A DNA stretch of 64,000 nucleotides from a virus (lineage: Duplodnaviria; Caudoviricetes). The notes beneath the pieces are model-generated. The model was not told the origin of the DNA. It saw only the letters and a list, made by a program, of their open reading frames with translations, and searched no databases. The translations under genes and the position numbers were made by a program. Shown one piece after another: positions 4,297-50,748 of this stretch (the first letter of the stretch is position 1; the number at the start of each line of letters is the position of its first letter). The stretch spans positions 32,001-96,000 of the IMG/VR virus record IMGVR_UViG_3300026549_000029, one strand, 5' to 3'.

Positions 4297-4794
4297 ATGG
4301 CTATTTTTAGTGTTAATGATAGTAGTTTAGGTGAGTATTTGAATGAGCATGGTGGTGCTCATAATAAATATGCAAAAATGATTGCTGATAAAGATAAAAA
4401 ATTAAAAAATAGAGAAGAAGCATTTAGAAATATAGGAACAGATGCTGCTAATGAAAAAGCCGATAAAGCTAGAAGAGAAAGAAACGAGCTTGCTGATAAG
4501 AATTTAAAATACATTGATGATTACGGAAATGATTATATATCTAATGTATATAAAAAGAAAAAAGAAGATGAAAAAAGTGGAAAAACTGTAAACTATTTTC
4601 AAAAGAATCAAAGAACTAGCTATGCAGAAGGTAAAAAGAGATTTAAAAGAGATTTTGGTAGTAAATCTAAAGATACTACTAATACTAATGATAGAAGGCC
4701 TGGAACTTATTTAGATGCTCAAAAGAAACTCAGAGAAGCAGCAGAATATATTCTTTCTGTTCTTGATGAATCTGAAAAAAAAAATGATAGATAA
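4297..4794 (+). CDS. basic protein with MAIF...LNE leader; putative internal head protein
   Basis: ORF with RBS; N-terminus MAIFSVNDSSLGEYLNE; K/R-rich. Confidence 0.55.
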   Translation: MAIFSVNDSSLGEYLNEHGGAHNKYAKMIADKDKKLKNREEAFRNIGTDAANEKADKARRERNELADKNLKYIDDYGNDYISNVYKKKKEDEKSGKTVNYFQKNQRTSYAEGKKRFKRDFGSKSKDTTNTNDRRPGTYLDAQKKLREAAEYILSVLDESEKKNDR

Positions 4795-4942
4795 TAAGGA
4801 ATTAAATAATGCATTTAAAAATGCAGTTAAATCTAAAGCTAAAGAATTATCTAATAAAGGAAAAGTTGTAGATATAAATTCTCTTCCGGATAATGATGAT
4901 AATTATATAAAAGATAAAATTAAAAATAGATTAAATAAATAA
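4786..4942 (+). CDS. small hypothetical protein
   Basis: 3' part of ORF 4715..4942; ATG overlaps the end of the previous gene. Confidence 0.4.
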
Positions 4943-5022
4943 TAAAAATAAAATCAAAAATTAGATAATATTTGTCTAAACTTAATGATCTTTTATAATT
5001 AATATTATTTTTATAATATACT

Positions 5023-5051
5023 AAACCCAATAGGTTATTCCTATTGGGTTT
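5023..5051. terminator. intrinsic terminator hairpin
   Basis: AAACCCAATAGG-N5-CCTATTGGGTTT. Confidence 0.7.
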
Positions 5052-5102
5052 AATTATCTAAAAAACTCTTTTATAATATTTGATAAAATATATTTATACA
5101 AT

Positions 5103-5112
5103 ATATTATAAT
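5103..5112 (+). promoter_or_regulatory. putative early phage promoter motif (A/G)TATTATAA
   Basis: Recurs upstream of non-structural genes at ~10102, 12456, 30482, 32878, 35539, 39912, 45734, 48719, 51075, 52137. Confidence 0.6.
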
Positions 5113-5126
5113 AAGGAGAAAATAAA

Positions 5127-5324
5127 ATGGAATGGGATGAATTTAAAAACCTTAAATTAGGATCAAGTTCTAAATCTAATTATGAATATAAAGAAACATT
5201 AACTGATATTAATTGTCCAGTATGTGGTGATAAAATATATAGAGATGATAGTGTAATATTGACAAGTATTCCACCAAAATATAGATATTTTTGTAAAAAA
5301 TGTAAATGGAATAGTTATGCTTAA
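5127..5324 (+). CDS. small zinc-ribbon protein
   Basis: CPVCG...CKKC; strong RBS. Confidence 0.75.
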   Translation: MEWDEFKNLKLGSSSKSNYEYKETLTDINCPVCGDKIYRDDSVILTSIPPKYRYFCKKCKWNSYA

Positions 5325-5362
5325 ATATGTTATTAGGGAGAAATCCCTAATGACATATTTTA

Positions 5363-5374
5363 AACTTCTTAATA
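5363..5374 (+). promoter_or_regulatory. putative late promoter AAC(A/T)-N6-TA
   Basis: Recurs before structural or late genes at 8797, 10065, 13578, 14086, 18389, 30454(-), 45579, 55656, 58763(-), 63318; matches the AR9 late consensus AACA-N6-TA. Confidence 0.55.
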
Positions 5375-5396
5375 ATTAATATAAAGGAGGTATATC

Positions 5397-6887
5397 GTGA
5401 AAGCACCTCTGAAAGGTAAACAAATTTTATCAGATAATCAAGTATTAGAAATCATTAATGTAGATCGATTTAGACCTACATTAAAATGCGATTTATTTGT
5501 TCCATCATATATACAATCTTTATCTGTTGCTACAGAATTTATCTATTCTTATGTATTAGAAAGATTTCCTAAAGACTTTTTTGAATCTATTCATGTTTCT
5601 GGTAAGAATATTATAGATGATTTTCGTAGATTTAATAAAGGAGAATATCCAGTTAGAGAAAATCCTGCAGTTAGTATTGCTTATAATTTACAATATGATT
5701 TTAATGATAATAACCTAGATTGGAACTGGTTATCTACTAATAAATATCTTCGTACTTCTGCTTGGCAAAGATCATTCTTTAAATGTCCTAAGAGAGGACT
5801 TTATATTGGAATGGATCTTGAAGCTATGCTGATTAATTATAATTTTAAATTCAGAGTAAATACAAGACCAGAACAGTTAGATCTTTATAATAGAATAAGA
5901 AAAGTATTTAGATTAGGTTGTACTGAAACAAATGATATAGATTGTGATTTCCATTTAGATAGAAAACTTATGACTAAAGTAGCAGAAGCTGCTGGATTTG
6001 CTATAGATACAGATGGACAAATTTTAGACCCATGGAATTTTACTCGTTTTTTAAATGCTCATTCTCAAATGCCTATATTATATAAACTTAGATTAATTAA
6101 TCAACATTATGAATGGTTTTTAAGAATGAGAAATCTTCCTGTACATTTAGATTTCCAAAATCCTTTAGATGTAGATGATGGTCAGCAGACTGGAATGGAT
6201 ACTACAGATTATACTATAGAATTTCAAATTGCTGTAAGATTTCCTGCACCAAGAACTTTTGCTTTCTATAATGAAGGTAACTGGAAACACGAAATATATA
6301 CTGAACCTAATGAAGGTATTACTATATATTCTATGAAACTTTTTGATATACCAGAAGAAAATTATAAGGGATGGCCTTTATATGGACATTCTAATTATAT
6401 GGCAGAAAAAGAAGAAGTAGTAGTTAAATATATAGATATAAAAGAACTCTTTGTAGCTCCAGTAGATATTAAAGTAGGAACATCTTTAGATGATTTAATT
6501 CAAGATAGTTTAAATAATTTTGTTAGTCCAGATGTATTTGTAGAGATTGCTGTATACACTAATGATTTATTAGTACATGGATCTGGTAGAGTTCCTATTG
6601 TAATGGATTGGGAAAAGAGAAGAATTATATTACCAGATGGAATACCAGATTCTTATTTCTATTTAGCTATTTATGTAGATAGAAAATATGTAAATGATAA
6701 AATAGTAGAAATTACTAATGCTAATTATAATAGAGTAATGCTTAGTAAAATGAAGAGTGATGAAATTCTTGAAAAGAAAGTACAAGAATATTATAATCAT
6801 GATCATATAATTGAGAAAGAAAAATTCCCAAATGGAAATTTAAAGAAAAAGAAAAAAGCACAATTTATTATTAAAATAGGTGAATAA
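5397..6887 (+). CDS. probable virion structural protein
   Basis: 496 aa, GTG start with GGAGG RBS, late-type promoter, beta-rich; no enzyme motif recognised. Confidence 0.55.
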   Translation: MKAPLKGKQILSDNQVLEIINVDRFRPTLKCDLFVPSYIQSLSVATEFIYSYVLERFPKDFFESIHVSGKNIIDDFRRFNKGEYPVRENPAVSIAYNLQYDFNDNNLDWNWLSTNKYLRTSAWQRSFFKCPKRGLYIGMDLEAMLINYNFKFRVNTRPEQLDLYNRIRKVFRLGCTETNDIDCDFHLDRKLMTKVAEAAGFAIDTDGQILDPWNFTRFLNAHSQMPILYKLRLINQHYEWFLRMRNLPVHLDFQNPLDVDDGQQTGMDTTDYTIEFQIAVRFPAPRTFAFYNEGNWKHEIYTEPNEGITIYSMKLFDIPEENYKGWPLYGHSNYMAEKEEVVVKYIDIKELFVAPVDIKVGTSLDDLIQDSLNNFVSPDVFVEIAVYTNDLLVHGSGRVPIVMDWEKRRIILPDGIPDSYFYLAIYVDRKYVNDKIVEITNANYNRVMLSKMKSDEILEKKVQEYYNHDHIIEKEKFPNGNLKKKKKAQFIIKIGE

Positions 6888-6888
6888 T

Positions 6889-7407
6889 ATGGCTATATTT
6901 AATGAGGGTTATATTAAAGACTTCTTTAATAAAAAGAAAAAAGAAGATACTAAATATAATAAAGAATCTGATAAAATAAATGAAAATAAAAAAGCAAATG
7001 TAATTAATGTAAAATTATCTGATAAGAATATTTTTGATAAGTTATATCATAATGAGGCATTAACTGCTGAAGGAATTATTATTAAAGATAATAATTGTGA
7101 TATAATAGAAAAATGGTTTAGAGAACGAAATAATTGTACTTCTAATAATTTAAATATGTATATAATTACAGGAAAAGTAATGAATGATTTTTATCATCTT
7201 ACTACTGATAATAAATATCCAGAAAATAATTTTAAAATATTATGTATCGATTGGATAACTGCTGGAGTTAGATCTCCATTTAAATCTAAATGGAGATGGT
7301 TCAGTGATGTTGTAGATAATAATGCAAAACGAGAGATTGCTAAAAGAAATCCTTATTATAAACACTATAATTCTATTTATTATGGTGATATTGGTTTTGA
7401 AGATTAA
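6889..7407 (+). CDS. MAIF-leader protein, putative internal head protein
   Basis: MAIFNEGYIKDFF...; globular C-terminal domain (ITGKVMN..YHLT..NKYP, RWFSDVVDNN). Confidence 0.6.
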   Translation: MAIFNEGYIKDFFNKKKKEDTKYNKESDKINENKKANVINVKLSDKNIFDKLYHNEALTAEGIIIKDNNCDIIEKWFRERNNCTSNNLNMYIITGKVMNDFYHLTTDNKYPENNFKILCIDWITAGVRSPFKSKWRWFSDVVDNNAKREIAKRNPYYKHYNSIYYGDIGFED

Positions 7408-7425
7408 TATTTTGAGGTAAATAAT

Positions 7426-8259
7426 ATGGCTATATTTACTCTTGATTATTTACAAGAATCTAAACAGAAATATGATCCTAAAATTGTAGATAGAGCTGCA
7501 GATGTATTTAGAAAATTACAAAAGATTTTATCTAATTCTAATAATGCTTTCTTTACACTTTATCCTATTAGACAAGATAAGATTTCTTTTAAAAAGAAAG
7601 ATGATAATAATTTAGTTGCTTCTTGTTCAATAGGAAAAGTAAATAATAAGAAAGATTATGAAGAAGATATAAGAAAGATTATTACTAATGCTAGATATAT
7701 TATTAATGATACTACTAGAGACTGTAGAGTTGCTTTATATGCTCAAGTAGATTCTAATATTTATTCTACTATAACTTTCTTTAACTGTGCTAATAAATAT
7801 ATTTTATCAGAAGCTTCTAAATATAATACTTCTCAGTATCTAGAAGATGATGATATAGAAAGACCCTCTAAAACTATCAAACATTTATCTAATTCTGAAA
7901 TACGTAGATGTAGAGATATTATTAAATCTTGTATTAATAAATATCCCAGAATTAAGAAATGTTGTGATTATATAGATTTATATGATAATGAAGAATTTAA
8001 TGATGAAGGTGAAAGATCATCTGCTTTAGATAGATATAAATCTAGAAAAGGAAGTTCTTATTTAAGATTAGTAGAAGGTGATGTATATTCTGGATATCCT
8101 GATTTTAAAGAAGAAGGATCAGAAGTTTTTCATGATGATGTAAGTGATTTAAAAGAAGATGTAAATGAGAAATTTAAATCATTTAATATTCCTGCTGAGT
8201 TTATGGTAAAATTAGATTATGATGCTATAAATTTTGGAGTTATAAGTAAAAAGACTTAA
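7426..8259 (+). CDS. MAIF-leader protein, putative internal head protein
   Basis: MAIFTLDYLQES; internal ILSEA. Confidence 0.6.
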   Translation: MAIFTLDYLQESKQKYDPKIVDRAADVFRKLQKILSNSNNAFFTLYPIRQDKISFKKKDDNNLVASCSIGKVNNKKDYEEDIRKIITNARYIINDTTRDCRVALYAQVDSNIYSTITFFNCANKYILSEASKYNTSQYLEDDDIERPSKTIKHLSNSEIRRCRDIIKSCINKYPRIKKCCDYIDLYDNEEFNDEGERSSALDRYKSRKGSSYLRLVEGDVYSGYPDFKEEGSEVFHDDVSDLKEDVNEKFKSFNIPAEFMVKLDYDAINFGVISKKT

Positions 8260-8284
8260 TTTTATAGAAAGGAGATAATATATC

Positions 8285-8743
8285 ATGGGTATTAATCCAC
8301 ATTTTGTTGAATTGACTAAATTAATTGCAGTATTATATGCTGTAGTGGTTGGTTACATTCTTACTGGTATTGCTAATAATTGTTTAGTTAATGGTGAGCC
8401 TTTTGATATTAAAGTATTAATAAAAGGCATTGTTAAAACTATTACTGCATGTGTAAGTTTAATTATTGTTGCTTATGTATGTACTATTATTGATTTAAGT
8501 AGTTTAGGATTTGAACCTCAGACTGCTATTACTTCTGGTATTATTGTATATACTGCTAAGCTTATTAGAAATGCAATGGGATTACTTGGATTAACTAAAG
8601 CTGGTAAAGAGAATAAAGAAGACGTATTAACTAGTAGTCCTATTCTCTATAATAAAGCTGAAGAAGAGCTACAGAAAGAGGATAATGATTTTACTGAAGT
8701 AAATATAGATGATAATGATGAAGGTCCTAAAGCTGTTGGATAA
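8285..8743 (+). CDS. putative holin or membrane protein
   Basis: Three hydrophobic segments and an acidic C-terminal tail. Confidence 0.6.
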   Translation: MGINPHFVELTKLIAVLYAVVVGYILTGIANNCLVNGEPFDIKVLIKGIVKTITACVSLIIVAYVCTIIDLSSLGFEPQTAITSGIIVYTAKLIRNAMGLLGLTKAGKENKEDVLTSSPILYNKAEEELQKEDNDFTEVNIDDNDEGPKAVG

Positions 8744-8760
8744 TTATATAAATAAAATTT

Positions 8761-8786
8761 GAGTAGGAGATTATTATCTCCTACTC
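8761..8786. terminator. intrinsic terminator hairpin
   Basis: GAGTAGGAGAT/ATCTCCTACTC. Confidence 0.7.
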
Positions 8787-8849
8787 TATTTAATTAAACA
8801 AATATATAAAAAATCAAATATAATTTCTTAAAGAAAGGATCTTATTATT

Positions 8850-9710
8850 ATGTTATTTTATTTATTTGAATCATCTTTAAATAATTTTAATCAATTATTA
8901 TTAGAAAAGAAAACTCAAGAACAATATTCTAGAGAATCATTTAAAAAGAAATATAATTTTAATCCTGATAAACCAGGAGCAGATACTGGTACTATTACTA
9001 AAGATGGTAAAACATATAGAATAGATATGAAAAAAGATAAAATTATAAATTATAATAATGAAAAAGTATTAAGAAATTTATCTGCTAATTCTGAAAGTGA
9101 AAAATCTACTATATATTTAGATGATAAATTTTTTAAACTTAAAGGATCTAATAAAGGTGAAAGAAAAGATGCTTTATTAAATCATGAAATAGGACATCAA
9201 AATTTACACAATATAAATTCAAATAATAAAACTGTAGATAAAAAGAATAGAACTGAAAAAGTATTTAAAACTGTTATAGATAATGAGCTTAAAGATAAAA
9301 ATATAAAATATGATCCAATAATAAAACATCTATACTATAAAAATAAAGGAATTGATAATTATAATAAATCTGGAACTTCTAATGCTTATGAAAAACAACA
9401 AAGAGATAAAAGTTTAGAAATAGCTAAAAAATATGAAAAGGACGAACCTCATTATAATGCTATAGAATATGAAGCAGATAGATATGCAGCCAATAAAACT
9501 TCAGAAAAAGCATTAAAAAGAGGACTTAGAAATTATCATAAATTATCTAATTCTAATAAAGCAATTAAACAATATAAAAAGATAACTAAAAATAATATAC
9601 CTACAGAACATATTAAAAAAGTTGAAAATAAATATTTTAATGATGAATTTAAAAATAGAACTAAAGTTTTAAAAGATAAAGATATGAAAAAATCTGATAT
9701 TTATAAATAA
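8850..9710 (+). CDS. HExxH zinc-metallopeptidase-like basic protein with cleavable-looking leader
   Basis: LLNHEIGHQ...EYEADRYA; N-terminus MLFYLFES...LLLE. Confidence 0.7.
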   Translation: MLFYLFESSLNNFNQLLLEKKTQEQYSRESFKKKYNFNPDKPGADTGTITKDGKTYRIDMKKDKIINYNNEKVLRNLSANSESEKSTIYLDDKFFKLKGSNKGERKDALLNHEIGHQNLHNINSNNKTVDKKNRTEKVFKTVIDNELKDKNIKYDPIIKHLYYKNKGIDNYNKSGTSNAYEKQQRDKSLEIAKKYEKDEPHYNAIEYEADRYAANKTSEKALKRGLRNYHKLSNSNKAIKQYKKITKNNIPTEHIKKVENKYFNDEFKNRTKVLKDKDMKKSDIYK

Positions 9711-9725
9711 TATTTGGTGAAAATT

Positions 9726-10007
9726 ATGGATAAGATAAAAAAAGATATATTAAATTCTTTATTTAATATTGGTATTATATATGAAACACCAATATTTCAT
9801 AGAACTATACTATATCCTTTTCATTTAGTAGATATTTCTATTGAAGATACTAAAGAATATATTTTAGAAAATAATAAAAATAATATGTCAGACAAAGAGA
9901 TTAATGAATTATCATATTGGTATAAAACAGAATTTGATAAAATTAAAAAAGAAACTATTGAAAAAGAAAATAAAAAATATTATAATTGTAAAAATAAAAA
10001 AAAATAA
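9726..10007 (+). CDS. hypothetical protein
   Basis: ORF 9714..10007, likely starting at the internal ATG. Confidence 0.5.
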   Translation: MDKIKKDILNSLFNIGIIYETPIFHRTILYPFHLVDISIEDTKEYILENNKNNMSDKEINELSYWYKTEFDKIKKETIEKENKKYYNCKNKKK

Positions 10008-10152
10008 AAAGAGATTTAGAAGGTAGAGAGCAATTCTCTACCTTTTTATTTTTATTTATTCTTAAACATTTAAATACTAATTTAAAAATGAAATTATACA
10101 TATATTATAATTATGATAATAAATATTTATATTATATAAGGAGGTTTTATAT

Positions 10153-11385
10153 ATGGGATTACTAGCTGATAGATTTAGAGCTTTAATTGCAAAAGAAAAA
10201 GATCCAAGAATGAATGAAGCAGATTCAGATATTTTATATTCTACAGGATTTCTTACATTAGATTTTTTAAATGGTTATAAAGCTTTTGTTAAGAAACCTA
10301 ATAATGAAGAATATTTTTATAATGCTGTAGGTTTTGTAGATGGTTCCAGTACCACATTCATCGGAAGGCCGTCGTCGGGCAAGACTACCATTGCGTTGCA
10401 AATAGCTGCGAATATTATTAGAAAATTTCCAAATGCAGTTATGTTTTATGATGATATTGAAGGTGGTTCTAATATAGCAAGAAGACAGATTCTTACTAGA
10501 TTTACATTAGAAGAAATGGATAATAGAATTATATATAGAAATAGTTCCGTTAGTGCAGAGAATTTTTATAAAAGAATTGCTATGATTTCTGATGAGAAAT
10601 TAAATCATAGAGATGAGTATGAATATAACACAGGTATTTTAGATTCTAAGGGAAAAGAAATTTATAAATTAATCCCTACTGTATATATTCTTGATTCTCT
10701 TGCTATGTTAACTCCTGAAAAGATTACTGAAGAAGAAGAGTTATCTGGACAGATGAGTACTACTGCTGCAGCTAAAACTAATACAGCAGTATTCAAAAGA
10801 ATAGTTCCTAAACTTAAAGCAGCAAATATTATATTATTTGTAATTAATCATATTAATGATAAGATTGAAATTAATGCTTTTACACATACTAAATCACAGG
10901 TAGGTTATTTAAAACAGAATGAAACATTGCCTGGTGGTAAAGCAGCATTATATTTAGCAAATAATATGATAAGAGTAGATGATGGTGCAGTACTTAAACC
11001 TGAGAAAGATCTTGGAGTGTCAGGAAAGATAGTAGATTTTACTTATATTAAATCTAGAACAAATGCTTCTGGTAGATCTATCCCTATGGTATTTACATAT
11101 GATAATGGATTTGATAATATGCTTTCATTATTTATGTTTCTTAAGTCAAATGGGGCTATAGAGATGAAAGGAGCATATTGTAGTCTTAGAGGATATCCTG
11201 ATATGAGATTTACTCAGAAAGGATTTAAAGATAAATTGCTTAATGACAGTGAATTTTCTCAGGCATTTTTAAATGTTGCTAAAGAAGAATTAGAAACTTT
11301 ATTAGCAAAGCCTATTGATAATTTACAGATCGATAATAATAGTTCTTTTGATAATTTATCTAATTCTTTATTAGGATTGAATTGA
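10153..11385 (+). CDS. recA: RecA/UvsX-like recombinase
   Basis: STGFLTLD, Walker A GRPSSGKTT, YDDIEG, ILDSLA, LFVINHI, PGGKA. Confidence 0.92.
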   Translation: MGLLADRFRALIAKEKDPRMNEADSDILYSTGFLTLDFLNGYKAFVKKPNNEEYFYNAVGFVDGSSTTFIGRPSSGKTTIALQIAANIIRKFPNAVMFYDDIEGGSNIARRQILTRFTLEEMDNRIIYRNSSVSAENFYKRIAMISDEKLNHRDEYEYNTGILDSKGKEIYKLIPTVYILDSLAMLTPEKITEEEELSGQMSTTAAAKTNTAVFKRIVPKLKAANIILFVINHINDKIEINAFTHTKSQVGYLKQNETLPGGKAALYLANNMIRVDDGAVLKPEKDLGVSGKIVDFTYIKSRTNASGRSIPMVFTYDNGFDNMLSLFMFLKSNGAIEMKGAYCSLRGYPDMRFTQKGFKDKLLNDSEFSQAFLNVAKEELETLLAKPIDNLQIDNNSSFDNLSNSLLGLN

Positions 11386-11405
11386 TAAAATAAGGAGTTT
11401 ATTAT

Positions 11406-11849
11406 ATGAATAAAGAGAAAATATTTAGATTCTTTGCAATATCTTTTTTGATATATGCTTTAATGTATTACTATTGTGATGTAGTAAAAGCTGAAGAAAT
11501 TCTCTGCAATCCTCCTCTTATAACAGCAGAGGATTCTTATATAGGTAATTCTCATATAAGTCAAAAAGAAAATATAGAAGAAATTGTTCCTCTATATACT
11601 TTATATTCTCAGCCATTTTCTGAAGATTTATATAATACATATCAAGTTATAACTACAACTGAACTTAATGTGAGAAAAGGTCCTGGAGTAAAATATGATA
11701 TTTATACATCTATTCCAGAAAATGAACCAGTAGATATTATTATAGAGGAATATCCAGAAACTGGATGGATAAAAGTCTGGGTAGATTGTGGAGAATATTT
11801 TGTTTATACAAAATATTTGAAAGTAATAAAAAGGAATATATATGAATGA
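11406..11849 (+). CDS. exported SH3b-domain protein
   Basis: N-terminal signal or TM segment; TELNVRKGPG..Y.I...GWIKV. Confidence 0.8.
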   Translation: MNKEKIFRFFAISFLIYALMYYYCDVVKAEEILCNPPLITAEDSYIGNSHISQKENIEEIVPLYTLYSQPFSEDLYNTYQVITTTELNVRKGPGVKYDIYTSIPENEPVDIIIEEYPETGWIKVWVDCGEYFVYTKYLKVIKRNIYE

Positions 11850-12409: not shown

Positions 12410-12509
12410 AGAGGATAATTTATCCTCTTCATTTATTTTTTACAAAAATAAAAAAGATATTATAATAATGAAACTGTAAAAATATTTTTATTTAAAAGGA
12501 GAAATAGAA

Positions 12510-13517: not shown

Positions 13518-13626
13518 AATAATATATTATATTAAATAAAGAGAGACATAGAAATGGCTCTCTTTATTTTTTATCAAAACTCATTAATAATAATATTAAA
13601 TAGCTGTATAAGGATGGCTAGAAAAT

Positions 13627-14028: not shown

Positions 14029-14133
14029 GAAGAGGAGAAATCCTCTTCTTATTTTTATTTTTTTTTCAATATTATTGTATTCTTCAACTTTTTATTAATT
14101 AAGCAATATCCAATAATATGGAGGATTAATAAA

Positions 14134-15027
14134 ATGCCTGATAATAAAATTGGTTACATCATAAATGAATCTGGATATCAAATGGAATATATTAATACTA
14201 CTCCCACTTCTAATATTAAAAATCATAAATTCTATAATCCTGATAGAATTGCTGGTTATGGTATTCTTCAGACTGGTGGTATTAAGAATAGAAATGGAAG
14301 AATCTATAGAACAGAAGATCTTGATAGAGAAATTCATGCTCCTAGACAAAGAGAATTATTAGGTACTGGTACTATGTTAGGACATTTATCCCATCCTGTA
14401 AGTGGAGATCTTGTTGTACAACAGACTATTGATCCTAAACTCTGTTGTGTAAGATTTCTTGATCTTTGGATGGATGGAGATAATGTAATGGGATCTTTCC
14501 AAGGTACTAATAATGAATATGGAGAGATGTTTGATAAAGATCTTAGGATTGGAGTTAGACCTGCATTCTCTCTTAGGGCTCTTGGTACTATAAGAGCTAC
14601 CCCTGAAGGAGCAGTTGTTGAGAATTTAAAAATGATTACATATGATGCGGTGGTATATCCATCTAATCCCGGTGCATATATGTGCGGTGTAATATCAGAA
14701 TCTGCAAATTTAATGGATGCTCCTATTTCTAATTTTAAACTTACTAATGCTAATGATGCTACTAAGTCTGCTATTTATCCTTTTACTAATGATGATGTAG
14801 TATCTGCTATGAAAGCTCAGCATACTAATGAATCTGCTATAGCTTTTGATATAATTAAAAATAAATCTTTTAATTATCAATTACTTAAAGAAGCTTTTGA
14901 TATGACAAAGATTAATATGGTAGATCTTATTTCTCCTAATAAAATTGCTCTTACAGAATCTGGTAAATCTACAATTGTGATGAATATTGAAGATTATATT
15001 GCTAAAGAGCTTCAAAATTATAAATAA
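14134..15027 (+). CDS. prohead maturation protease (T4 gp21-like)
   Basis: NRNGRIY, GHLSHP, FSLRALG, TYDAV.YPS. Confidence 0.9.
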   Translation: MPDNKIGYIINESGYQMEYINTTPTSNIKNHKFYNPDRIAGYGILQTGGIKNRNGRIYRTEDLDREIHAPRQRELLGTGTMLGHLSHPVSGDLVVQQTIDPKLCCVRFLDLWMDGDNVMGSFQGTNNEYGEMFDKDLRIGVRPAFSLRALGTIRATPEGAVVENLKMITYDAVVYPSNPGAYMCGVISESANLMDAPISNFKLTNANDATKSAIYPFTNDDVVSAMKAQHTNESAIAFDIIKNKSFNYQLLKEAFDMTKINMVDLISPNKIALTESGKSTIVMNIEDYIAKELQNYK

Positions 15028-15058
15028 TATTGTTAATTACCACCTTAGGAGGTGTATT

Positions 15059-18333: not shown

Positions 18334-18434
18334 AAATAAAGAGGCATTTAAGCCTCTTTATTTTTTTTCTACATTTCTTTTCTCTCAAAACTTTATATTA
18401 ATAATCCAAATATATTTGTGGAGGATATTCTACA

Positions 18435-25766: not shown

Positions 25767-26276
25767 ATGGGTATATTTACTCCCAAATCTAAATTTATGA
25801 AAATGATGAAAACTACTTTAAATACTAATAAGTATTTCATAGAGAATAAAAAAGAGGAAGATAAAATGGCAGAATACTCTACAATTAAATTAAATGATAC
25901 ATGTAATAGTTATATGACTAATACTATAACTGATAAATTTGAAGAGTTAAATGATAAATATGATGAATGTATCTCTTTCTCTGAACAACAAATTAAATTG
26001 AATAAACAGTTAAAGAATAATTGTGATAGATTTAATAAAAATTTGAGAAAGAATACTGATGATATTGTTATACATATTGATAGAACTTATGATAAGTTAT
26101 ATGAAGTTCTTGATAATCAGTATCGACAGGAATTAATTGAAATTAGGTATGCTTCTCAGTATAAAGATGAGATTCTTAATGAAATAAGAAATATTAAGAA
26201 AACTGTATATTTCTTTATGAAAATATATGGAGTATTATTACTTGCTACTTTTCTTTCAATATGTTTTTTAAGATAA
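25767..26276 (+). CDS. coiled-coil protein with C-terminal TM anchor
   Basis: Heptad-like body; IYGVLLLATFLSICF at the extreme C-terminus. Confidence 0.7.
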   Translation: MGIFTPKSKFMKMMKTTLNTNKYFIENKKEEDKMAEYSTIKLNDTCNSYMTNTITDKFEELNDKYDECISFSEQQIKLNKQLKNNCDRFNKNLRKNTDDIVIHIDRTYDKLYEVLDNQYRQELIEIRYASQYKDEILNEIRNIKKTVYFFMKIYGVLLLATFLSICFLR

Positions 26277-39896: not shown

Positions 39897-39990
39897 AGAC
39901 TAATTAAATTAGATATTATAAACTTGATAAATATATGGGGCTTATATATTAATATAAGCCCCTCTCTAATCTAAAAGGAGAAAATGAAAA

Positions 39991-40512: not shown

Positions 40513-40514
40513 TA

Positions 40515-41000: not shown

Positions 41001-41020
41001 TATAAAGGAGAAAATAAATT

Positions 41021-41389: not shown

Positions 41390-41405
41390 GAGAGGTATTT
41401 CTATA

Positions 41406-43778: not shown

Positions 43779-43784
43779 AAACGG

Positions 43785-43810
43785 GGGTAAGAGGATTAAT
43801 CCTCTTACCC
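43785..43810. terminator. bidirectional terminator
   Basis: GGGTAAGAGGA/TCCTCTTACCC. Confidence 0.8.
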
Positions 43811-43838
43811 TTAATTATATTTTTTTTACTCTTATTTA

Positions 43839-43973
43839 TTATGCATTCCCATTAGGAATAGACTTAAGATAATTTGCCTGAGCAGTAGTAATCCACTTTT
43901 TTGCAAGAGCTTTATCAACTTCAGCATCAGTAAGATTTCCTTTTCTACGCATTCTAAGAAGAGTATTATACAT
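43839..43973 (-). CDS. 44-aa XkdX-like protein (not in ORF track)
   Basis: AGGAGG RBS; MYNTLLRMRRKGNLTDAEVDKALAKKWITTAQANYL. Confidence 0.7.
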   Translation of the reverse strand: MYNTLLRMRRKGNLTDAEVDKALAKKWITTAQANYLKSIPNGNA

Positions 43974-44032
43974 ATTAAAAATCCTCCTTATAAGATCGAT
44001 CTATATAGTATATCGGATATTAATTATGAAAA

Positions 44033-44482
44033 TTATTCAGTGGGTTCCTGGTTAGGATCAACCTCAGGTTCAGATTCATCTTCAGGGAAAAGTTTTTCAT
44101 CACCAAAGATAATAGCAAGAATATCATCAACAACCTCTTCAAGATCTGCAAGTCTTTCATCAATACTCTTCTTAATGCAGACAATTATGAATGCAGTATT
44201 GATAATTTCTTCACCAGTTTCAGGATCAATACCATTACTATACTGAGGAAGCTTAGCAACTTCTTTAATTGCAGTATAGCCATAATACTTAGCAATATAA
44301 GAAGTATCATCACCCTTACCAAGAACAACATCAAATTCATCTACACCAGAAAATGCAGATTCAATTTCTTCAAGAGTTTTATTATTGCAAATAATAGTAA
44401 AAGATATAGAGCTTTCATCACCAGTATATCCATTATCTGCAAGAGTAAACTCATAGCCATTTGATAAAACAACTTTCGACAT
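44033..44482 (-). CDS. tail-fibre-associated chaperone-like protein
   Basis: Acidic; ends SIDERLADLEEVVDDIL; upstream of the XkdX-like gene. Confidence 0.55.
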   Translation of the reverse strand: MSKVVLSNGYEFTLADNGYTGDESSISFTIICNNKTLEEIESAFSGVDEFDVVLGKGDDTSYIAKYYGYTAIKEVAKLPQYSNGIDPETGEEIINTAFIIVCIKKSIDERLADLEEVVDDILAIIFGDEKLFPEDESEPEVDPNQEPTE

Positions 44483-44551
44483 AATTATGTCCTCCTTAAA
44501 TAATTTAAAAACATGTTTTTAGATTTTAGAAAGGATTTAACTTGATAAAAT

Positions 44552-45544
44552 ATGGTAAGTAATATAGAAATGATTCTAAAACTAATGGAACAAGATCTAA
44601 ATGAATACCAATTAGCTAAGCTCAAAAATGTTTTAGAAATCATTCTTAAAACTACTAGAAACTCTCTACCAAATGAAGAATTGATAGACAGATTCATACA
44701 AAATAAAAAATTAGTTGGACTTTCTCAATCTTCTATAGTTCATTATACTGGTGAAGCCCGTAGATTAGCAGCTTATTACCCTAATAGAAATCTAACAGAA
44801 CTTACTACAGCAGATATAAAAGATTATTTATCTGAATATGTTGCAGAACGTAATTTACAGGCAAGCACTACTCAAACTATGGTAAGATTTCTATCAGCAT
44901 TTTATGATTTTCTTGTAAATGAAGAGTATATAGAAAGAAATCCTTGCCATAGAATAGAAAAAATTATAGTAGAAAAGAAGATTAAAAAAGCTTTTACAGA
45001 AGAAGATATAGAAGCATTAAGAAATGCTTGTACTACTTCTAGAGATAGAGCTTTTCTAGAATTTCTTTATTCTACAGGCTGTAGAATATCAGAGACATTA
45101 AGCCTAAAAGTACAAGATATTGATTTCTCAGAAGGAGAAATTATTGTGTTTGGTAAAGGTCATAAAGAGAGAATAGTATATTTATCAAATATTTGTATGG
45201 AATGGTTAAAAATATATTTAACTCAGAGAAATGCTCAACCTGAAGAACCATTGTTTAGTCATTTAGATTCTCCTAAAAAGAAATTAACTGTAAGAGCAGC
45301 ACAACTTATTTTAAAAGATTTAGGTCTCAAAAGTGGTGTTGATAATGTACATCCTCATAGATTCAGACGTACTATGGCAACACATGCTATGGATAAAGGT
45401 ATGCCTATTGAACAGATTAAAGAACTTTTAGGTCATTCTAAATTAGATACAACAATGATTTATTGTAATGTGAATGCTGGGAAAGTTAAAGCTAGTTTTA
45501 AAAATATATTTAATGATAATGATCCTTTTAATAATAAAAATTAA
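44552..45544 (+). CDS. tyrosine recombinase (XerC/D-like)
   Basis: RDRAFLEFLYSTGCRISE, GKGHKER, HPHRFRRT, LLGH..LDTTMIY; catalytic R-K-H-R-H-Y intact. Confidence 0.95.
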   Translation: MVSNIEMILKLMEQDLNEYQLAKLKNVLEIILKTTRNSLPNEELIDRFIQNKKLVGLSQSSIVHYTGEARRLAAYYPNRNLTELTTADIKDYLSEYVAERNLQASTTQTMVRFLSAFYDFLVNEEYIERNPCHRIEKIIVEKKIKKAFTEEDIEALRNACTTSRDRAFLEFLYSTGCRISETLSLKVQDIDFSEGEIIVFGKGHKERIVYLSNICMEWLKIYLTQRNAQPEEPLFSHLDSPKKKLTVRAAQLILKDLGLKSGVDNVHPHRFRRTMATHAMDKGMPIEQIKELLGHSKLDTTMIYCNVNAGKVKASFKNIFNDNDPFNNKN

Positions 45545-45583
45545 TTTTAATAACTATATATTGTGAGATTTTGACTTTAACAG

Positions 45584-45674
45584 TTATATAAAGTACTCAT
45601 TTATGGTGCTGAGGTGGGTGCTTTGTATGGTTCAATTACTTGTTTCTTGTCCATACTCATGATTCATTTTTATT
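45584..45674 (+). repeat. imperfect direct repeat copy 1 / candidate sRNA
   Basis: ~90 bp matching 48606-48698. Confidence 0.85.
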
Positions 45675-45683
45675 TTCTCCAGA

Positions 45684-45707
45684 GCTAGGTTCCATATGGA
45701 ACCTAGC
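45684..45707 (+). terminator. intrinsic terminator
   Basis: GCTAGGTTCCAT/ATGGAACCTAGC followed by a T-rich tract. Confidence 0.75.
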
Positions 45708-45779
45708 ATTTATTTTTAAAAAAATAAAAATAAATATTATAATATTAATATATGGTATTAATATTATTTAAAAGGAGAA

Positions 45780-48554
45780 ATGGAAATGAATACAGAGAAA
45801 AAGAAATTAGAACTTTATGAACATAATCTTGAAGCTTATAATGAACTTATTAATTTTATAAATAATAATAAAAATAATAAGATTTGTATTATACGTCCTA
45901 CTGGAACAGGTAAAGCTTTTATTGAACTTAAATTTATTGAAGAAAATATTGATAAAAAGTTTCTTCATATTACATCTTATACAGAAAATCTTAATCAGTT
46001 TAAAAGATATGTAGATGAATATCTTGATAATCCTAATATTGTATATTCTACATATGCTGGATTAAAAAATATCTGTAATGATTATGAAGATTATTTTGAT
46101 TATATTATAACAGATGAATTTCATCATATTGGAGCTCCTAAATGGACAGCATCTCTTAATAAATTATCCAATCAGAATCCAAATGCAACTATTATAGGAT
46201 TATCTGCTACGGAAAAAAGATATTCTGATATTACTATAAATGGTACACCTAGAGATGTATCAGAAGAGTATTTTAATAATAATATAATAGCAAATTTATC
46301 ATTAAGTGATGCTATTATGAATGGTATATTACCTGTACCAAATTATATTTATGGTATAATTAATATTGTTGAAATACTTAATAATTGTAAAAATGACAAA
46401 AATCTTTATAAAAATGCTAAGAAAAATATCGAAAAAAAGATTAATAATATTAAAAGTGTAATAAATGAAAATATTAAAAGAAAAAATGGAAAATATATAA
46501 TTTTCTGTAGAAATATAGAGCATAAAGAATCTGTAAAGTATGAAGCATTATCCGAATGGTTTATAGATTTTAATGTATCTGTATATGATATTGATTCTAC
46601 TAAATCAGTAAAAAAGAATAGAGAAAATATAGATAATTTTATAAATAATAATGATGATACTCTTAAATTATTATTTAGTGTAAATATGTTAAATGAAGGA
46701 GTTCATATAAAAGGTGTAGATGGTGTAATACTTAGTAGATATACAGAAAGTAATAATGTATATTTTCAGCAGATTGGACGGGCATTATCATCTGATTATA
46801 TAGAATATAATAATCAGAATCCTGTAATAATAGATCTTGTTAATAATATTAAAAATATTGCTAATATTGTAGATTTTTGGATTCCTTTATATAATAATTT
46901 AAAAGAAATTAATAGAATTAGTGAAAAAGAATGTGAATCATTATTTATGCTTAAATTTAATTCTTTAAATAGTAATTTATTAATTGAATTATTTAATTTT
47001 ATTAATAAAATTAAAATAAAGCCTATAGAAGAATGGTTTAAAGAATTAGATAAGTTTTATGAAAAAAATGGTAGGTATCCTAAGACTAATGAAGGAAGTA
47101 TAGGACATTGGCTTAATGACATTAAAGTAAAAGCAAGACAAGGTAAAGCATCAGATTATATTTTATCTGAACTTGAAAAAAGAGGAATTAATTTAGATTT
47201 TAAAATTAAATCTACAAAAGAACGATTTAAAGAATTAGATAAGTTTTATGAAGAAAATGGTAGGTATCCTAAAAAAAGAGATGGAAGTATAGGAGAATGG
47301 TTTATAGATATTAAAGTAAAAGCAAGACAAGGTAAAGCATCAGATTATATTTTATCTGAACTTGAAAAAAGAAATATTAATTTAAATACTATATATGCTA
47401 AAGCTAAATCTATGGAAGAATGGTTTAAAGAATTAGATAAGTTTTATGAAGAAAATGGTAGATATCCTAATACTAAAGATAAAAGTATGGGAAATTGGTT
47501 TAAAGATATTAAAGTAAAAGCAAGACAAGGTAAAGCATCAGATTATATTTTATCTGAACTTGAAAAAAGAGGAATTAATTTTAGTAGTAAGTGTAAATCC
47601 ATAGAAGAATGGTTTAAAGAATTAGATAAGTTTTATGAAGAAGATGGTAGGTATCCTAAAGAAAGAGATGGAAGTATAGGAGAATGGTTTAAAAATATTA
47701 AAGTAAAAGCAAGACAAGGTAAAGCATCAGATTATATTTTATCTGAACTTGAAAAAAGAAATATTAATTTAAATATAATACGTACTAGTATTAGAGGTAG
47801 ATCTATAGAAGAATGGTTTAAAGAATTAGATAAGTTTTATGAAGAAAATGATAGATATCCAAATACTAATGATGGAAGTATAGGAAGTTGGCTTAAAAAG
47901 ATTAAAGTAAAAGCAAGACAAGGTAAAGCATCAGATTATATTTTATCTGAACTTGAAAAAAGAAATATTAGTATAATCTCTTTAATAATAGATGATAAGC
48001 TTATAGAATTAGATAAATTCTATAAAGAAAATGGTAGATATCCTGAATGGAATGAAGGAAAAATAGGACAATGGCTTTTAAGTACTAAAACTAGAATAAA
48101 ACATGGTAAAGCATCAGATTATATTTTATCTGAACTTGAAAAAAGAGGAATAAATACTAATAATAAATATAAATCTGCAGAAGAGCAATTTATAGAATTT
48201 GATAAATTCTATAAAGAAAATTATAGATATCCTAGAGCTAAAGACGGAGAAATAGGAAGGTGGTTTTTAAATACTATTAATAGAGTAAAACAAGGTAAAG
48301 CATCAGATTATGTTTTATCTGAACTTGAAAAAAGAAATATTAGTTTAAATTCTAAAATTAGATCTGCAGAAGAGCGATTTATAGAATTGGATAAGTTTTA
48401 TGAAAAGAATGGTAGATATCCTAAGACTAATGAAGGAGGTATAGGAGGTTGGCTTAGAGATATTAGAGCAGATGTAAGACAAGGTAAAGCATCAGATTAT
48501 ATTTTATCTGAACTTGAAAAAAGAGGAATTAAATCTAATAAAAAAAGAAAATAA
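45780..48554 (+). CDS. SF2 DExH helicase with 8 C-terminal helicase-associated (HA-like) repeats
   Basis: LYEHN, PTGTGKA, DEFHH, GLSAT, VNMLNEGV, QQIGRAL; ~63-aa repeats ELDKFY..NGRYP....IG.W...K...G.ASDYILSELEKR. Confidence 0.9.
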   Translation: MEMNTEKKKLELYEHNLEAYNELINFINNNKNNKICIIRPTGTGKAFIELKFIEENIDKKFLHITSYTENLNQFKRYVDEYLDNPNIVYSTYAGLKNICNDYEDYFDYIITDEFHHIGAPKWTASLNKLSNQNPNATIIGLSATEKRYSDITINGTPRDVSEEYFNNNIIANLSLSDAIMNGILPVPNYIYGIINIVEILNNCKNDKNLYKNAKKNIEKKINNIKSVINENIKRKNGKYIIFCRNIEHKESVKYEALSEWFIDFNVSVYDIDSTKSVKKNRENIDNFINNNDDTLKLLFSVNMLNEGVHIKGVDGVILSRYTESNNVYFQQIGRALSSDYIEYNNQNPVIIDLVNNIKNIANIVDFWIPLYNNLKEINRISEKECESLFMLKFNSLNSNLLIELFNFINKIKIKPIEEWFKELDKFYEKNGRYPKTNEGSIGHWLNDIKVKARQGKASDYILSELEKRGINLDFKIKSTKERFKELDKFYEENGRYPKKRDGSIGEWFIDIKVKARQGKASDYILSELEKRNINLNTIYAKAKSMEEWFKELDKFYEENGRYPNTKDKSMGNWFKDIKVKARQGKASDYILSELEKRGINFSSKCKSIEEWFKELDKFYEEDGRYPKERDGSIGEWFKNIKVKARQGKASDYILSELEKRNINLNIIRTSIRGRSIEEWFKELDKFYEENDRYPNTNDGSIGSWLKKIKVKARQGKASDYILSELEKRNISIISLIIDDKLIELDKFYKENGRYPEWNEGKIGQWLLSTKTRIKHGKASDYILSELEKRGINTNNKYKSAEEQFIEFDKFYKENYRYPRAKDGEIGRWFLNTINRVKQGKASDYVLSELEKRNISLNSKIRSAEERFIELDKFYEKNGRYPKTNEGGIGGWLRDIRADVRQGKASDYILSELEKRGIKSNKKRK
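47020..48535 (+). repeat. 8 tandem ~190-bp intragenic repeats
   Basis: Near-identical core GGTAAAGCATCAGATTAT(A/G)TTTTATCTGAACTTGAAAAAAGA in every unit. Confidence 0.95.
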
Positions 48555-48605
48555 AAAATAAAGAGGGATTTCTCCCTCTTTATTTTTTTTAATATTCTCT
48601 TTTCT

Positions 48606-48698
48606 TTATATAAAGTATTCATTTATAATACTGAGGTGGGTACTTTGTATGACTCAAATACTTGTTATTTGTCCATACCCTTATGATTCATTTTTATT
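48606..48698 (+). repeat. imperfect direct repeat copy 2
   Basis: Matches 45584-45674. Confidence 0.85.
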
Positions 48699-48773
48699 AT
48701 TTTTTATTTAATAAAAATATATTATAATAATAAGAATATTAATATGATTAAAAAATAAAAGGGGAAAATTAAA

Positions 48774-48977
48774 ATGAATAAATTAGAATTGGTTACACCT
48801 TGTAAATATGAAGTTATAGCAGAATTAGGTCTTAATGATTGGAATCCTAAAAAAGTTATAGTTAAAGCTGAAACAATTAAAAAAGCTAAAATATTAGCTA
48901 GACAATATTTAAAAAATAAATATAATATAAAGAAAGTATTTTTTATTAAAATACGAAAAATAAAGGAAGGTGTTTGA
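48774..48977 (+). CDS. small early protein (paralog of 30532..30717)
   Basis: EVIAEL...IVKAETIKKAKILA. Confidence 0.65.
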   Translation: MNKLELVTPCKYEVIAELGLNDWNPKKVIVKAETIKKAKILARQYLKNKYNIKKVFFIKIRKIKEGV

Positions 48978-48994
48978 ACCTTCCTTTATTTTTT

Positions 48995-49732
48995 CTAATA
49001 TTCTCTTTCCATTCTTTTCTTTTTTCTTTCTAAACTATGAGGATTATAATAATCTTCATCTATTAAATTACTATGAATTCCGGCTCCAATTAAATAAACA
49101 TTCATAGTATTCTTAGCAATACTATCAGTCTTTTCTGTATCAATATCTTTAAAGCTTACTTCACCTTTTACACTAATAGTACTATAAGCTTCAGTCTTTG
49201 CTTTCATAGCAGCTGCTTTAATTCTAGCATATTCTTCTACAGTTCTCTCTAATCCTAAAGCTAATGCACCTTCAAACTCTTTATTAGATTCTGTACCACC
49301 TTTATCATGTGATAATAATCTACCTGTCTTCATATCCCTATTAGCAATCTCAATAGCAGTATTATTCTTTTTAGTAAGCATTTGTTTAAGTCTTTTAATA
49401 TTCATATAGCCTACTAAACATTCTTGAGATTCTATAGGTTTACCATCTTTATTTCTTGCTAAATAAGGTAACTTAACTTTTTCTATTAAAGGTTTATTAA
49501 GTACTTTAAATGCATTAATAATGTCAGGCATTTTAGGTTCATTATTAAAAGGAGATACATGATAACGGAAAGGTAATCTTCCAGATATTAATTCAGTAAA
49601 TTGTTTATCTGTCATATTAGATAATAAAGTTTGATAATATTCTGTATTAGCTCCAGTAGGATCTATAGCATCAAAAGTTCTATAAATAAGCTCTTCGCAT
49701 TGCTTTCTTTTTTCTGGAGAAATTATAGGCAT
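48995..49732 (-). CDS. multisubunit RNA polymerase beta-subunit C-terminal fragment (virion-RNAP type)
   Basis: LVGYMNIKRLKQM resembles beta VGYMYMLKLNHL; RDMKTG...DKGG..S.KE...AL.LG; NTMNVYLIGAGI. Confidence 0.8.
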   Translation of the reverse strand: MPIISPEKRKQCEELIYRTFDAIDPTGANTEYYQTLLSNMTDKQFTELISGRLPFRYHVSPFNNEPKMPDIINAFKVLNKPLIEKVKLPYLARNKDGKPIESQECLVGYMNIKRLKQMLTKKNNTAIEIANRDMKTGRLLSHDKGGTESNKEFEGALALGLERTVEEYARIKAAAMKAKTEAYSTISVKGEVSFKDIDTEKTDSIAKNTMNVYLIGAGIHSNLIDEDYYNPHSLERKKKRMEREY

Positions 49733-49786
49733 AACTAATCTCCTTTTATTATTTTTTTAAAGAAATTATTAATATAATTAATCTTA

Positions 49787-50239
49787 TTATAATTTATATG
49801 ATAAAATACAATCATTTTTTCCTTCATCAAAATCAAATTTTCCTCTTATATATTTAGCAGAATTTGTTTTAATTATATTTTTTAAAAAATGAAAAGCATC
49901 GGATGCTTTCTTTAAAAATTCTGCAAATTCTTTTTCTGATAATTCATTATTTTTATTTGTATATGTTTCGCATTTTAAAAAAGTAAATTTATTTGTATCA
50001 CAATAATCTGTAAAATCTTCATAATTATCTTTTGTTATAAAATAACCATCTGTATTTGGATATAAAATAAATGTTGTATATTTTAAATCATTTTTATATT
50101 TTTCTTTAGTTTTCTTTATAGCATCTTTAGAAATTTTTAATATAGTAGATATTTCTTTTTTACGTATAGCTGATTCATCTGAAGATTCATTAACAAGATA
50201 ATTATGTATACTAGATTCACTTAAATAAAATATAGCCAT
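49787..50239 (-). CDS. MAIF-leader protein, putative internal head protein
   Basis: MAIFYLSESSIHNYLVNES after a GGAGG RBS. Confidence 0.6.
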   Translation of the reverse strand: MAIFYLSESSIHNYLVNESSDESAIRKKEISTILKISKDAIKKTKEKYKNDLKYTTFILYPNTDGYFITKDNYEDFTDYCDTNKFTFLKCETYTNKNNELSEKEFAEFLKKASDAFHFLKNIIKTNSAKYIRGKFDFDEGKNDCILSYKL

Positions 50240-50253
50240 GATTAGTTCCTCCA

Positions 50254-50748
50254 TTAATTATATTTTTCTATCCATTCCCAATTCCAGCCATATAATTCAG
50301 CACTAAATTTTGTAGGATTATTAAATGGACCATATGTAAATTTATGTCCCGGTTTACCATCATCACCAATAACTTTAATTTTTCCAATACAAATCTGATT
50401 TACTTCTTCTAATATCCATAATTCATCAGTTATACCAGAATCTGGTACTTCTTTTATACTTGGTTTATATATTTTAAAATTACTATTTGGATCTGGAATT
50501 TGAACAAAAAATTCTTCTAAAGAACAATTTCTGCTTAATGCCATTAAACATTTATCTATACTAGGAGCAAAACATACTCTTGGAGTTTTATTATCTTCAT
50601 ATCCATTTTTAACAAAATAGTTATCAGGTATTCTAGGTATAGCTATTTTATTATTTTCATTAGTATGAGTAAGCCTAAATATTTTTATCTTTTCTATATT
50701 CTTTAATTTAGTATATTCAGTTATATATTCCATATTAAATATGCCCAT
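50254..50748 (-). CDS. MGIF-leader protein, possible ADP-ribosyltransferase-like fold
   Basis: MGIFNMEYITE; FRLTH...PRIP...ED.KTPRVCFAPSI...VPD...T.ELW. Confidence 0.5.
   Translation of the reverse strand: MGIFNMEYITEYTKLKNIEKIKIFRLTHTNENNKIAIPRIPDNYFVKNGYEDNKTPRVCFAPSIDKCLMALSRNCSLEEFFVQIPDPNSNFKIYKPSIKEVPDSGITDELWILEEVNQICIGKIKVIGDDGKPGHKFTYGPFNNPTKFSAELYGWNWEWIEKYN

Follow-up and report, generated by a model that had tools for sequence, protein, structure and literature searches.

Within a 64,000-nucleotide stretch of viral DNA (hereafter the window: bases 32001-96000 of the single 287,868-bp IMG/VR virus record IMGVR_UViG_3300026549_000029, 27.7% G+C; coordinates are those of the window unless marked genome), several dispersed genes of an AR9-related jumbo phage encode proteins that have unrelated bodies and begin alike, with a short leader that opens with M-A/G/S-I/L-F/Y and closes, at a variable distance, with a hydrophobic residue, any residue and Glu (h-x-E). 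This N-terminal tag is non-random and is maintained at the level of the protein; it is also modular, conserved clade-wide and common to the scaffold-like protein of the phage. We regard it as likely that the leader represents a capsid targeting and processing tag of the phage T4 type, used by the scaffold-like protein and by exchangeable cargo alike, and the tagged proteins are probably packed into the capsid, because the tag matches the working positions of the T4 signal and ends in the motif of the head protease. The sequence-only reading of this DNA had proposed a portable capsid-address tag; the parts of that proposal that can be tested in silico, namely modularity, an end in an S77-type protease motif and the positional match with the T4 capsid targeting sequence (CTS), all hold, and by analogy with T4 we infer loading into the head, cleavage after the Glu, retention and co-injection with the DNA.

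A leader common to unrelated proteins

The six N-termini that had been listed from the sequence were all found, at 4297(+), 6889(+), 7426(+), 8850(+), 50239(-) and 50748(-). Two of them, 6889 and 50239, are internal ATG starts with the ribosome sites AGGTGA and GGAGG, respectively, 6-8 nt upstream, and the start at 50748 is less sure, as another open ATG lies four codons upstream. A seventh case in the window, beyond those listed, is 25767(+), which reads MGIF...YFIE, and further tagged genes lie elsewhere in the genome, at genome positions 212230(-), 214525(-) and 276531(+), with a looser one at 257689(+).

We compared, by Fisher's test, the frequency of M[AGS][IL][FY] after initiator Met with that after internal Met, separately in the phage genome studied (G000, ~327 proteins in the full set) and in one complete relative (G002, 270,993 bp), chosen from IMG/VR contigs whose protease is 59% identical. 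Both genomes are enriched: the motif follows 10/327 initiator against 5/1756 internal Met residues in G000 (p 1e-5), and 9/321 against 5/2082 in G002 (p 1e-5), and position-specific composition predicts only 0.6-1.4 such starts in G000. A hydrophobic-hydrophobic-x-E sequence is present within residues 5-30 in seven of the ten tagged proteins and in 51 of the 317 others (p 3e-4), and the leaders span 10-26 residues, with a hydrophobic residue at P3. Since the tag codons vary synonymously (GCT/GCA/GCC/GCG, ATA/ATT/ATC, TTT/TTC) and the DNA upstream of the tagged genes is unrelated, selection acts on the peptide and not on a DNA element or on the initiation region.

A position-specific scoring matrix (PSSM) trained on the scaffold-like leaders only was then scanned over all N-termini of G000 and G002, with internal Met positions as controls (n=2822). 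Fifteen N-termini score >=9.7, that is, at least 9.7, against 0.69 expected from the controls, and 13 of these 15 belong to non-scaffold proteins. Because a matrix built on scaffold leaders alone picks out so many other N-termini, the cargo is concluded to carry the scaffold-like protein's own N-terminal peptide.

The earlier claims that the bodies are unrelated and that the tag is portable were both borne out. The bodies show no significant similarity by BLASTP or in a profile comparison (hhalign probability 0.3%), homologues of one body occur elsewhere without the tag, and near-identical tags sit on different bodies: the likeness between a protein of G004 and one of G002 is confined to the first 17 residues, and homologues of the zincin-like peptidase described below have, in relatives, leaders near-identical to those of the unrelated window proteins 50239 and 4297. 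In AlphaFold (AF2) models of two cargo proteins, the leader is disordered: it is the sole N-terminal stretch with a predicted local distance difference test (pLDDT) score <50, and confident domains start right after it. Between G000 and G002, most tagged proteins are without an orthologue in the other genome, the tag being kept where orthologues exist; the internal proteins of T4 likewise turn over as a set (PMC3012670). In the IMG/VR contigs with the 59% identical protease, the tag is present on genes with strong ribosome sites. The protease neighbourhoods of these relatives contain no tagged genes; synteny differs there, and the tagged genes are located elsewhere in those genomes.

A separate observation was made in a tandem cluster of tagged paralogues in G002. 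At 127304-127740 (~7304-7740 of G002 120001-140000), a tagged gene stops after 26 codons and its body resumes in another frame; this body corresponds by homology to residues 49-175 of a tagged protein that is intact in G001 and G004. We read the locus as a frameshifted pseudogene or else as a recoding site.

The scaffold-like protein, the T4 signal and the prohead protease

The tag is also the start of a very acidic, scaffold-like protein of 346 residues (genome 276531-277571, +), encoded directly upstream of the major capsid gene (genome 277727-279481, matching PHROG 20655) and having YLNE at residue 22. A search with the conserved C-terminal part of this protein returned 90 homologues, and all 90 start with M-[SGA]-[LFI]-[FI] and have h-h-[NHQ]-E 3 to ~25 residues further on, followed by a conserved L-x-V-N-G. 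The shortest leaders in this family are 10-12 residues long, as in MGIFARYLHE. A comparable acidic gene, g116, occupies the same place before the capsid gene of AR9.

The CTS of T4 is MKTYQEFIAE (bioRxiv 10.1101/2021.01.19.427310), and the gp21 prohead protease removes it from the internal proteins IPI-III and from Alt (Mullaney and Black 1996, reviewed in PMC9026906, PMC3012670 and PMC5694885). Mutagenesis of the CTS assigned targeting to residues 4 and 7 and processing to residues 8 and 10, and Asp at position 10 blocks processing and leaves targeting intact (PMC9026906). In the 10-residue leaders (MGIFARYLHE), F, Y, L and E stand at precisely these positions 4, 7, 8 and 10; the 11-residue leaders of the window have one residue more than the T4 form, and the other window leaders have more inserted. 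The proteins Alt, gp24 and gp22 (the scaffold), as encoded in the T4 genome, start with M-x-x-h-x-x-h-h-x-E; the pattern is thus common to scaffold and cargo in T4 as well.

The similarities between the two systems are several: (i) a short N-terminal tag of ~10 residues is placed on unrelated, fast-changing and non-essential-looking proteins; (ii) positions 4 and 7 are aromatic or hydrophobic and positions 8 and 10 are L/I and E; (iii) an S77-type protease is present in both; and (iv) the cargo shows parallels, with an ADP-ribosyltransferase (ART)-like protein here matching Alt and a small basic protein here matching the internal proteins. In spite of these similarities, there are also differences: (i) the leader starts with M-A/G/S-I/L-F here and with M-K-T-Y in T4, and its length is variable here; (ii) there are ~10 tagged proteins per genome here, in a system known from sequence alone; and (iii) the phage is an AR9-related jumbo phage with multisubunit RNA polymerases (RNAPs), whose capsid and portal match no T4 Pfam family. 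Indeed, the Pfam models for the T4 capsid and the T4 portal found no match anywhere in the genome, and the capsid protein, which is ~21% identical to those of Bacillus phage AR9/PBS1, Staphylococcus jumbo phages and Yersinia phiR1-37, was found via PHROGs and AR9 instead.

The propeptides of phiKZ, 201phi2-1 and SPN3US offer a second comparison, as these too are jumbo phages with a virion RNAP and a gp21-related protease (gp175 or gp245) that cuts after Glu. In contrast to the leaders described here, however, these propeptides are mostly 80-250 residues long, each belongs to one paralogue family and their motif is S/A/G-x-E; the present leaders are short, common to unrelated families and hydrophobic at P3, as in T4. 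In SPN3US, gp53 and gp54 share an identical 15-residue N-terminus, which the authors compared to the CTS (PMC5694885, PMC9026906).

The presumed tag-processing enzyme is a prohead protease of the T4 gp21 type (Peptidase_S77) encoded at 14134..15027 (+), which matches PF03420 with 51 bits (cut-off 27) and the PHROG 'head maturation protease' and is 27% identical to T4-like proteases. Its catalytic His87 and Ser146 are invariant in relatives and align with His85 and Ser140 of T4 gp21. The T4 protease cuts after L/I-x-E (PMC9026906). That xxE-S sites recur in the protease of this phage (IINES, VISES, ALTES) and in genes 16597 and 17583, as had been noted earlier, proved correct: the protease's own h-x-E-S sites are at residues 10-13, 187-190 and 273-276, its N-terminus keeps IINES or ILNES, and the capsid protein keeps LLNE-S or ILEE-S at residues 36-40. 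The same motif was met in large proteins that contain relatives of the ART-like cargo, where h-x-E-[SA] stands 2-18 residues ahead of the start of the ART-like domain in 85 of the 127 embedded copies, against 8% expected (p 1.7e-60). At these borders P3 is I/V/L, P2 is often N or T, P1' is S or A, and the motif is frequently doubled. Judged by its residues, the end of the tag is of the kind that the S77 protease of this phage would be expected to recognise, and the same motif independently marks the domain borders of the polyproteins.

Related sites were seen in two proteins encoded outside the window. An 848-aa multidomain protein (genome 14171-16717, -) has h-x-E-[SA] at residues 6-9 (LIEA) and 277-280 (LLES), sites that fit the joint rule derived from the unrelated polyproteins. 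An 870-aa protein (genome 273913-276525), encoded immediately upstream of the scaffold-like gene and 43% identical in G002, matches no family and contains three h-x-E-S sites within its first 225 residues. It was considered for a time to be the portal protein, and this assignment was withdrawn when tblastn placed the portal gene at genome 159427-161751, as the counterpart of AR9 g128 (E 1e-47).

Cargo domains, proposed delivery and competing explanations

Two of the tagged proteins had been described from the sequence as an ART-like protein and an HExxH peptidase, and the peptidase was confirmed by its motif, whereas the ART-like protein is supported by its fold at modest scores. The first (50254..50748, -, 164 aa) has the leader MGIFNMEYITE (nt 50716-50748), and its AF2 model has a pLDDT of 88.8, residues 1-18 being <50. 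The top matches of this model in Foldseek and in an independent aligner (VIA) are nearly all ADP-ribosyltransferases, with modest scores: Foldseek E values are 0.1-1, and VIA gives Z of 6.1 for TreX, 5.5 for EcPltA and 5.3 for Arr, with root-mean-square deviations of 3.6-4.1 over 107-112 residues, and 5.2 for Scabin. ESM Atlas returns an Arr match at 0.94, and the residues invariant in the family include R57, E109 and W111. We call the fold of this body ART-like rather than ART because the scores are modest and no catalytic residues are assigned. The second, a zincin-like peptidase (8850..9710, +, 286 aa), has a 19-aa variant leader ending in LLLE (nt 8850-8906). It contains HEIGH, and HExxH is present in 95/95 of its homologues, 69/95 of which start with M-small-h-[FY], the typical leader being MAIFNE...(I/V)LNE followed by KKT; no Pfam family matches the window protein above threshold.

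In Erwinia phage RAY (gp71), Salmonella phage SA002 and other phages, homologues of the ART-like protein match it from residue 20 on, and their N-termini are unrelated and have no tag. An exhaustive search recovered 824 relatives, and among the best 150 of these most are proteins of 500-2900 aa in which the ART-like domain is internal, on the same chains as GNAT, P-loop kinase, NUDIX, transglutaminase-like and metallophosphatase domains. This is the architecture of the polyvalent proteins, which are predicted to be packaged and delivered with the phage DNA (Iyer et al. 2017, PMC5512222). As in that class, the domain carried by the cargo lies mostly inside large multidomain phage proteins with diverse enzymatic modules, and zincin (HExxH) and ART domains are hallmark modules of the class. 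In contrast to that class, the modules in our phage are single-domain proteins, each with its own tag, and the related polyproteins carry h-x-E|S joints of the prohead-protease type, whereas the polyvalent class relies on an internal zincin for release.

Cargo and scaffold are joined in the protein P0170, a metagenomic relative. This natural fusion runs from a tag through an ART-like domain, which shares 45% identity with the window protein (E 7e-41), and a second site, FLNE, into an acidic scaffold-like protein (E 1e-31); its order thus places a cargo domain physically on the scaffold-like protein, between two candidate cut sites. In six other proteins (P0149, P0156, P0202, P0218, P0235 and P0249), which form another group of relatives, a different conserved motif near the N-terminus, roughly H-(H/Y)-G-V-K-G-M-K-W-G-V-R-K, stands ~45 residues ahead of the ART-like domain; it may be a delivery or processing signal of another phage lineage.

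In the mechanism that we propose, the tag would be the N-terminal peptide of the acidic scaffold-like protein, copies of which are carried by a changing accessory set. The small residue, Ile/Leu and Phe at positions 2-4, together with the aromatic residue before the end, would dock the protein into the assembling prohead core; once the shell has closed, the gp21-type S77 protease would cut after the Glu of the h-x-E site, the tag would leave, and the mature cargo would stay in the head and enter the host with the DNA. The cargo so delivered would include the zincin peptidase, the ART-fold protein, the basic protein and further domains. We put forward a more specific proposal only tentatively, with somewhat less than even confidence: the tag would be the scaffold's docking peptide, the cargo proteins would be scaffold mimics, and effector domains would move among tagged single-domain proteins, protease-jointed giant polyproteins and scaffold insertions such as P0170.

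Four other explanations of the leader were considered. If it were a mere removable propeptide, keeping the zincin or the ART-like enzyme inactive until head maturation while other parts of the proteins mediate entry into the prohead, the fit of its conserved end to the protease motif would be accounted for, and the long propeptides of phiKZ and SPN3US are in fact cut without any shared short tag (PMC5694885). Yet the most conserved part of the leader is its extreme N-terminus and not the cut site: orthologues of the 7426 protein all keep M1, I3 and F4, also where the whole middle is swapped for an acidic linker. This conserved part matches the T4 residues for targeting, not those for processing, and the unrelated bodies have no other common element that could direct entry. 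We consider a mere propeptide improbable. A little less probable still is an uncleaved interaction motif that would serve another machine (a GroEL-like chaperonin, the virion RNAP or a membrane site), with no capsid loading. Such partners do have some basis in the genome, which encodes a chaperonin, places two tagged genes beside a virion-RNAP-related gene and includes, in the weaker member 25767, a tagged protein with a C-terminal hydrophobic, membrane-anchor-like segment; but the tag is also found on the acidic protein whose gene immediately precedes the capsid gene, it lacks a hydrophobic core like that of a signal peptide, and its end is the exact limit of sequence similarity, at the Glu of a protease-type motif. 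Moreover, the P0170 fusion sets a cargo domain inside the scaffold-like protein between two h-x-E sites.

That the leader is the recognition sequence of a modifying enzyme, like the leaders of ribosomally synthesized and post-translationally modified peptides, is very unlikely: one maturase can be served by shared N-terminal tags on unrelated proteins, but a search that was positive in 14/14 control genomes detected no radical-SAM enzyme in this genome, the tags are not near-identical but differ from one another in sequence and length, and a scaffold-like head protein carries one. Finally, chance or an initiation preference for ATG GCT ATA TTT in an AT-rich genome, in which Ala is common at position 2 (44/327 proteins) and Ile and Phe are abundant, is effectively refuted by the excess of such starts over expectation (8-11 against 0.6-1.4), by the synonymous variation of their codons, by a likeness that runs 10-20 residues to the common h-h-x-E end, and by the retention of the tag in hundreds of homologues from three unrelated families, while it is absent from those structural proteins that are expressed most highly, the capsid protein among them.

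A capsid targeting and processing tag of the T4 type has, nevertheless, a number of observations against it: (i) The MAIF head and the h-x-E tail are separated by 3 to ~25 residues, unlike the fixed 10-residue length in T4. (ii) At the position where a cut would be expected, the leader of the 6889 protein has Asp (YIKD) and not the Glu of the other leaders. Since in T4 an Asp at CTS position 10 blocks processing and allows targeting (PMC9026906), this protein is perhaps loaded unprocessed; it might load without removal of the tag or be cut at the earlier FNE. (iii) The Glu is followed by Leu/Ile in the scaffold family, as opposed to Ser/Ala at the polyprotein borders. (iv) Internal h-x-E-[SA] sites are not underrepresented in the cargo bodies (8 against an expected 5.7), and so single-cut behaviour of the kind shown by the T4 internal proteins is not evident from their sequence. 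(v) A recognisable late-type motif is present in the transcription unit of only about half of the tagged genes. (vi) In AR9, whose whole genome was assembled for this comparison from the annotated GenBank record KU878088 and which is the nearest isolate (~21% identity of the capsid proteins), the generic T4-like N-terminal pattern is found in 2/36 virion proteins annotated by mass spectrometry against 10/282 others (p 0.40), and the scaffold-trained matrix has no significant matches there, such a clade-specific matrix not transferring to AR9. Small virion-annotated proteins of AR9 (g153, g078, g096 and g115), and g116, do have leader-like starts ending in h-x-E (e.g., MSSFFNLLTE), which are statistically indistinguishable from background.

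If the leader is indeed a capsid targeting tag, the T4 mechanism would not be restricted to the T-even phages and would instead be an old, portable feature of phages with gp21-type proteases, reaching the AR9-like jumbo lineage with its functional positions preserved. The tag would then label proteins brought into the cell before any gene expression, here a zincin, an ART-like enzyme and several uncharacterized proteins, and these would be leading candidates for anti-defence or host-takeover functions in the first minute of infection, in phages that are beyond the reach of culture. Single-domain tagged effectors would also be linked to the giant polyvalent proteins through common modules and a common release motif. 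Should the cargo proteins in fact mimic the scaffold, the tag and the joint motif would together become a searchable key to the injected effectors of uncultured phages with S77 proteases, and the tag would provide a handle for loading foreign proteins into jumbo-phage heads.

Tagged genes of the window and their genomic context

The first tagged gene (4297..4794, +) has a leader of residues 1-17 (nt 4297-4347) that ends in YLNE, and its PSSM score of 19.3 is topped by 0/2822 controls. Its 148-aa body is basic (isoelectric point 9.6, 26% K+R) and has no Pfam or PHROG match; this composition is reminiscent of the basic internal proteins of T4. A conserved 496-aa protein of unassigned function (5397..6887, +) heads the next operon, which holds two tagged genes, and is preceded by the late-promoter-like sequence AACTTCTTAATA at 5363-5374; it is 63% identical to its G002 orthologue, after which comes a syntenic gene pair with one tagged member. 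The two tagged genes of this operon encode proteins of 172 aa (6889..7407, +, leader MAIFNEGYIKD), with no family match, and of 277 aa (7426..8259, +, leader MAIFTLDYLQE, nt 7426-7458). The latter has two folded domains and, in its AF2 model, residues 1-12 with pLDDT <50; its fold has no convincing match, Foldseek giving E 0.04 or worse and VIA a best Z of 8.0 that lies inside the tool's background range, with heterogeneous matches.

A weaker candidate of 169 aa (25767..26276, +) has the MGIF start and reaches YFIE first at residue 26, with a PSSM score of 10.4 and a control fraction of 0.0004. On the minus strand, next to the ART-like gene, a 150-aa protein (49787..50239, -) has an 18-aa leader ending in LVNE (nt 50186-50239). 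A Cas10/Cmr2-like identity for this protein was dropped, as the ESM Atlas leads to it were flagged as probably wrong by the tool itself. Family and fold searches assigned no function to the 6889, 7426 and 49787 proteins.

The last gene of the minus-strand operon that holds these two tagged genes is untagged (48995..49732, -) and matches two PHROGs, 'RNA polymerase beta subunit' and 'hydrolase'. By tblastn it shows homology with part of AR9 g078 (E 3e-19 to AR9 63316-63717). According to GenBank KU878088, g078 is a polyprotein that undergoes proteolysis, its virion-RNAP domain being the only part detected in virions. AR9 represents the nearest cultured lineage, and g078 starts with MSFFKGIRNIE; it is, however, one polyprotein, whereas the phage described here has separate tagged genes, and the tag conserved throughout the present clade is statistically undetectable in AR9.

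The word AAC(A/T)-N6-TA occurs upstream of starts at 5363-5374, at 8797-8808 (AACAAATATATA, ahead of the zincin gene), at 14086-14097 (AACTTTTTATTA, ahead of the protease gene) and at 18389-18400, the same word preceding the protease and other head or virion genes. In the genome, 66 of its 344 copies are in the non-coding 9%, a roughly twofold intergenic enrichment, and it stands 23-55 nt ahead of the protease, several very large virion-type genes, the 5397 operon with its two tagged genes and the tagged zincin gene. The sequence-only reading had placed most of the tagged genes in late-type transcription units. This was only partly supported: it agrees with the 5397 operon and the zincin gene, which have the AAC(A/T)-N6-TA word, and not with the remaining tagged genes, which have only variant motifs or none.

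Beyond the tagged genes, the window contains two paralogous genes of ~170 aa, at 51106-51621 and 52169-52672, whose N-terminal halves are near-identical (MEKIKVNKIEDPLDIK...) and which have a 149-aa open reading frame between them.

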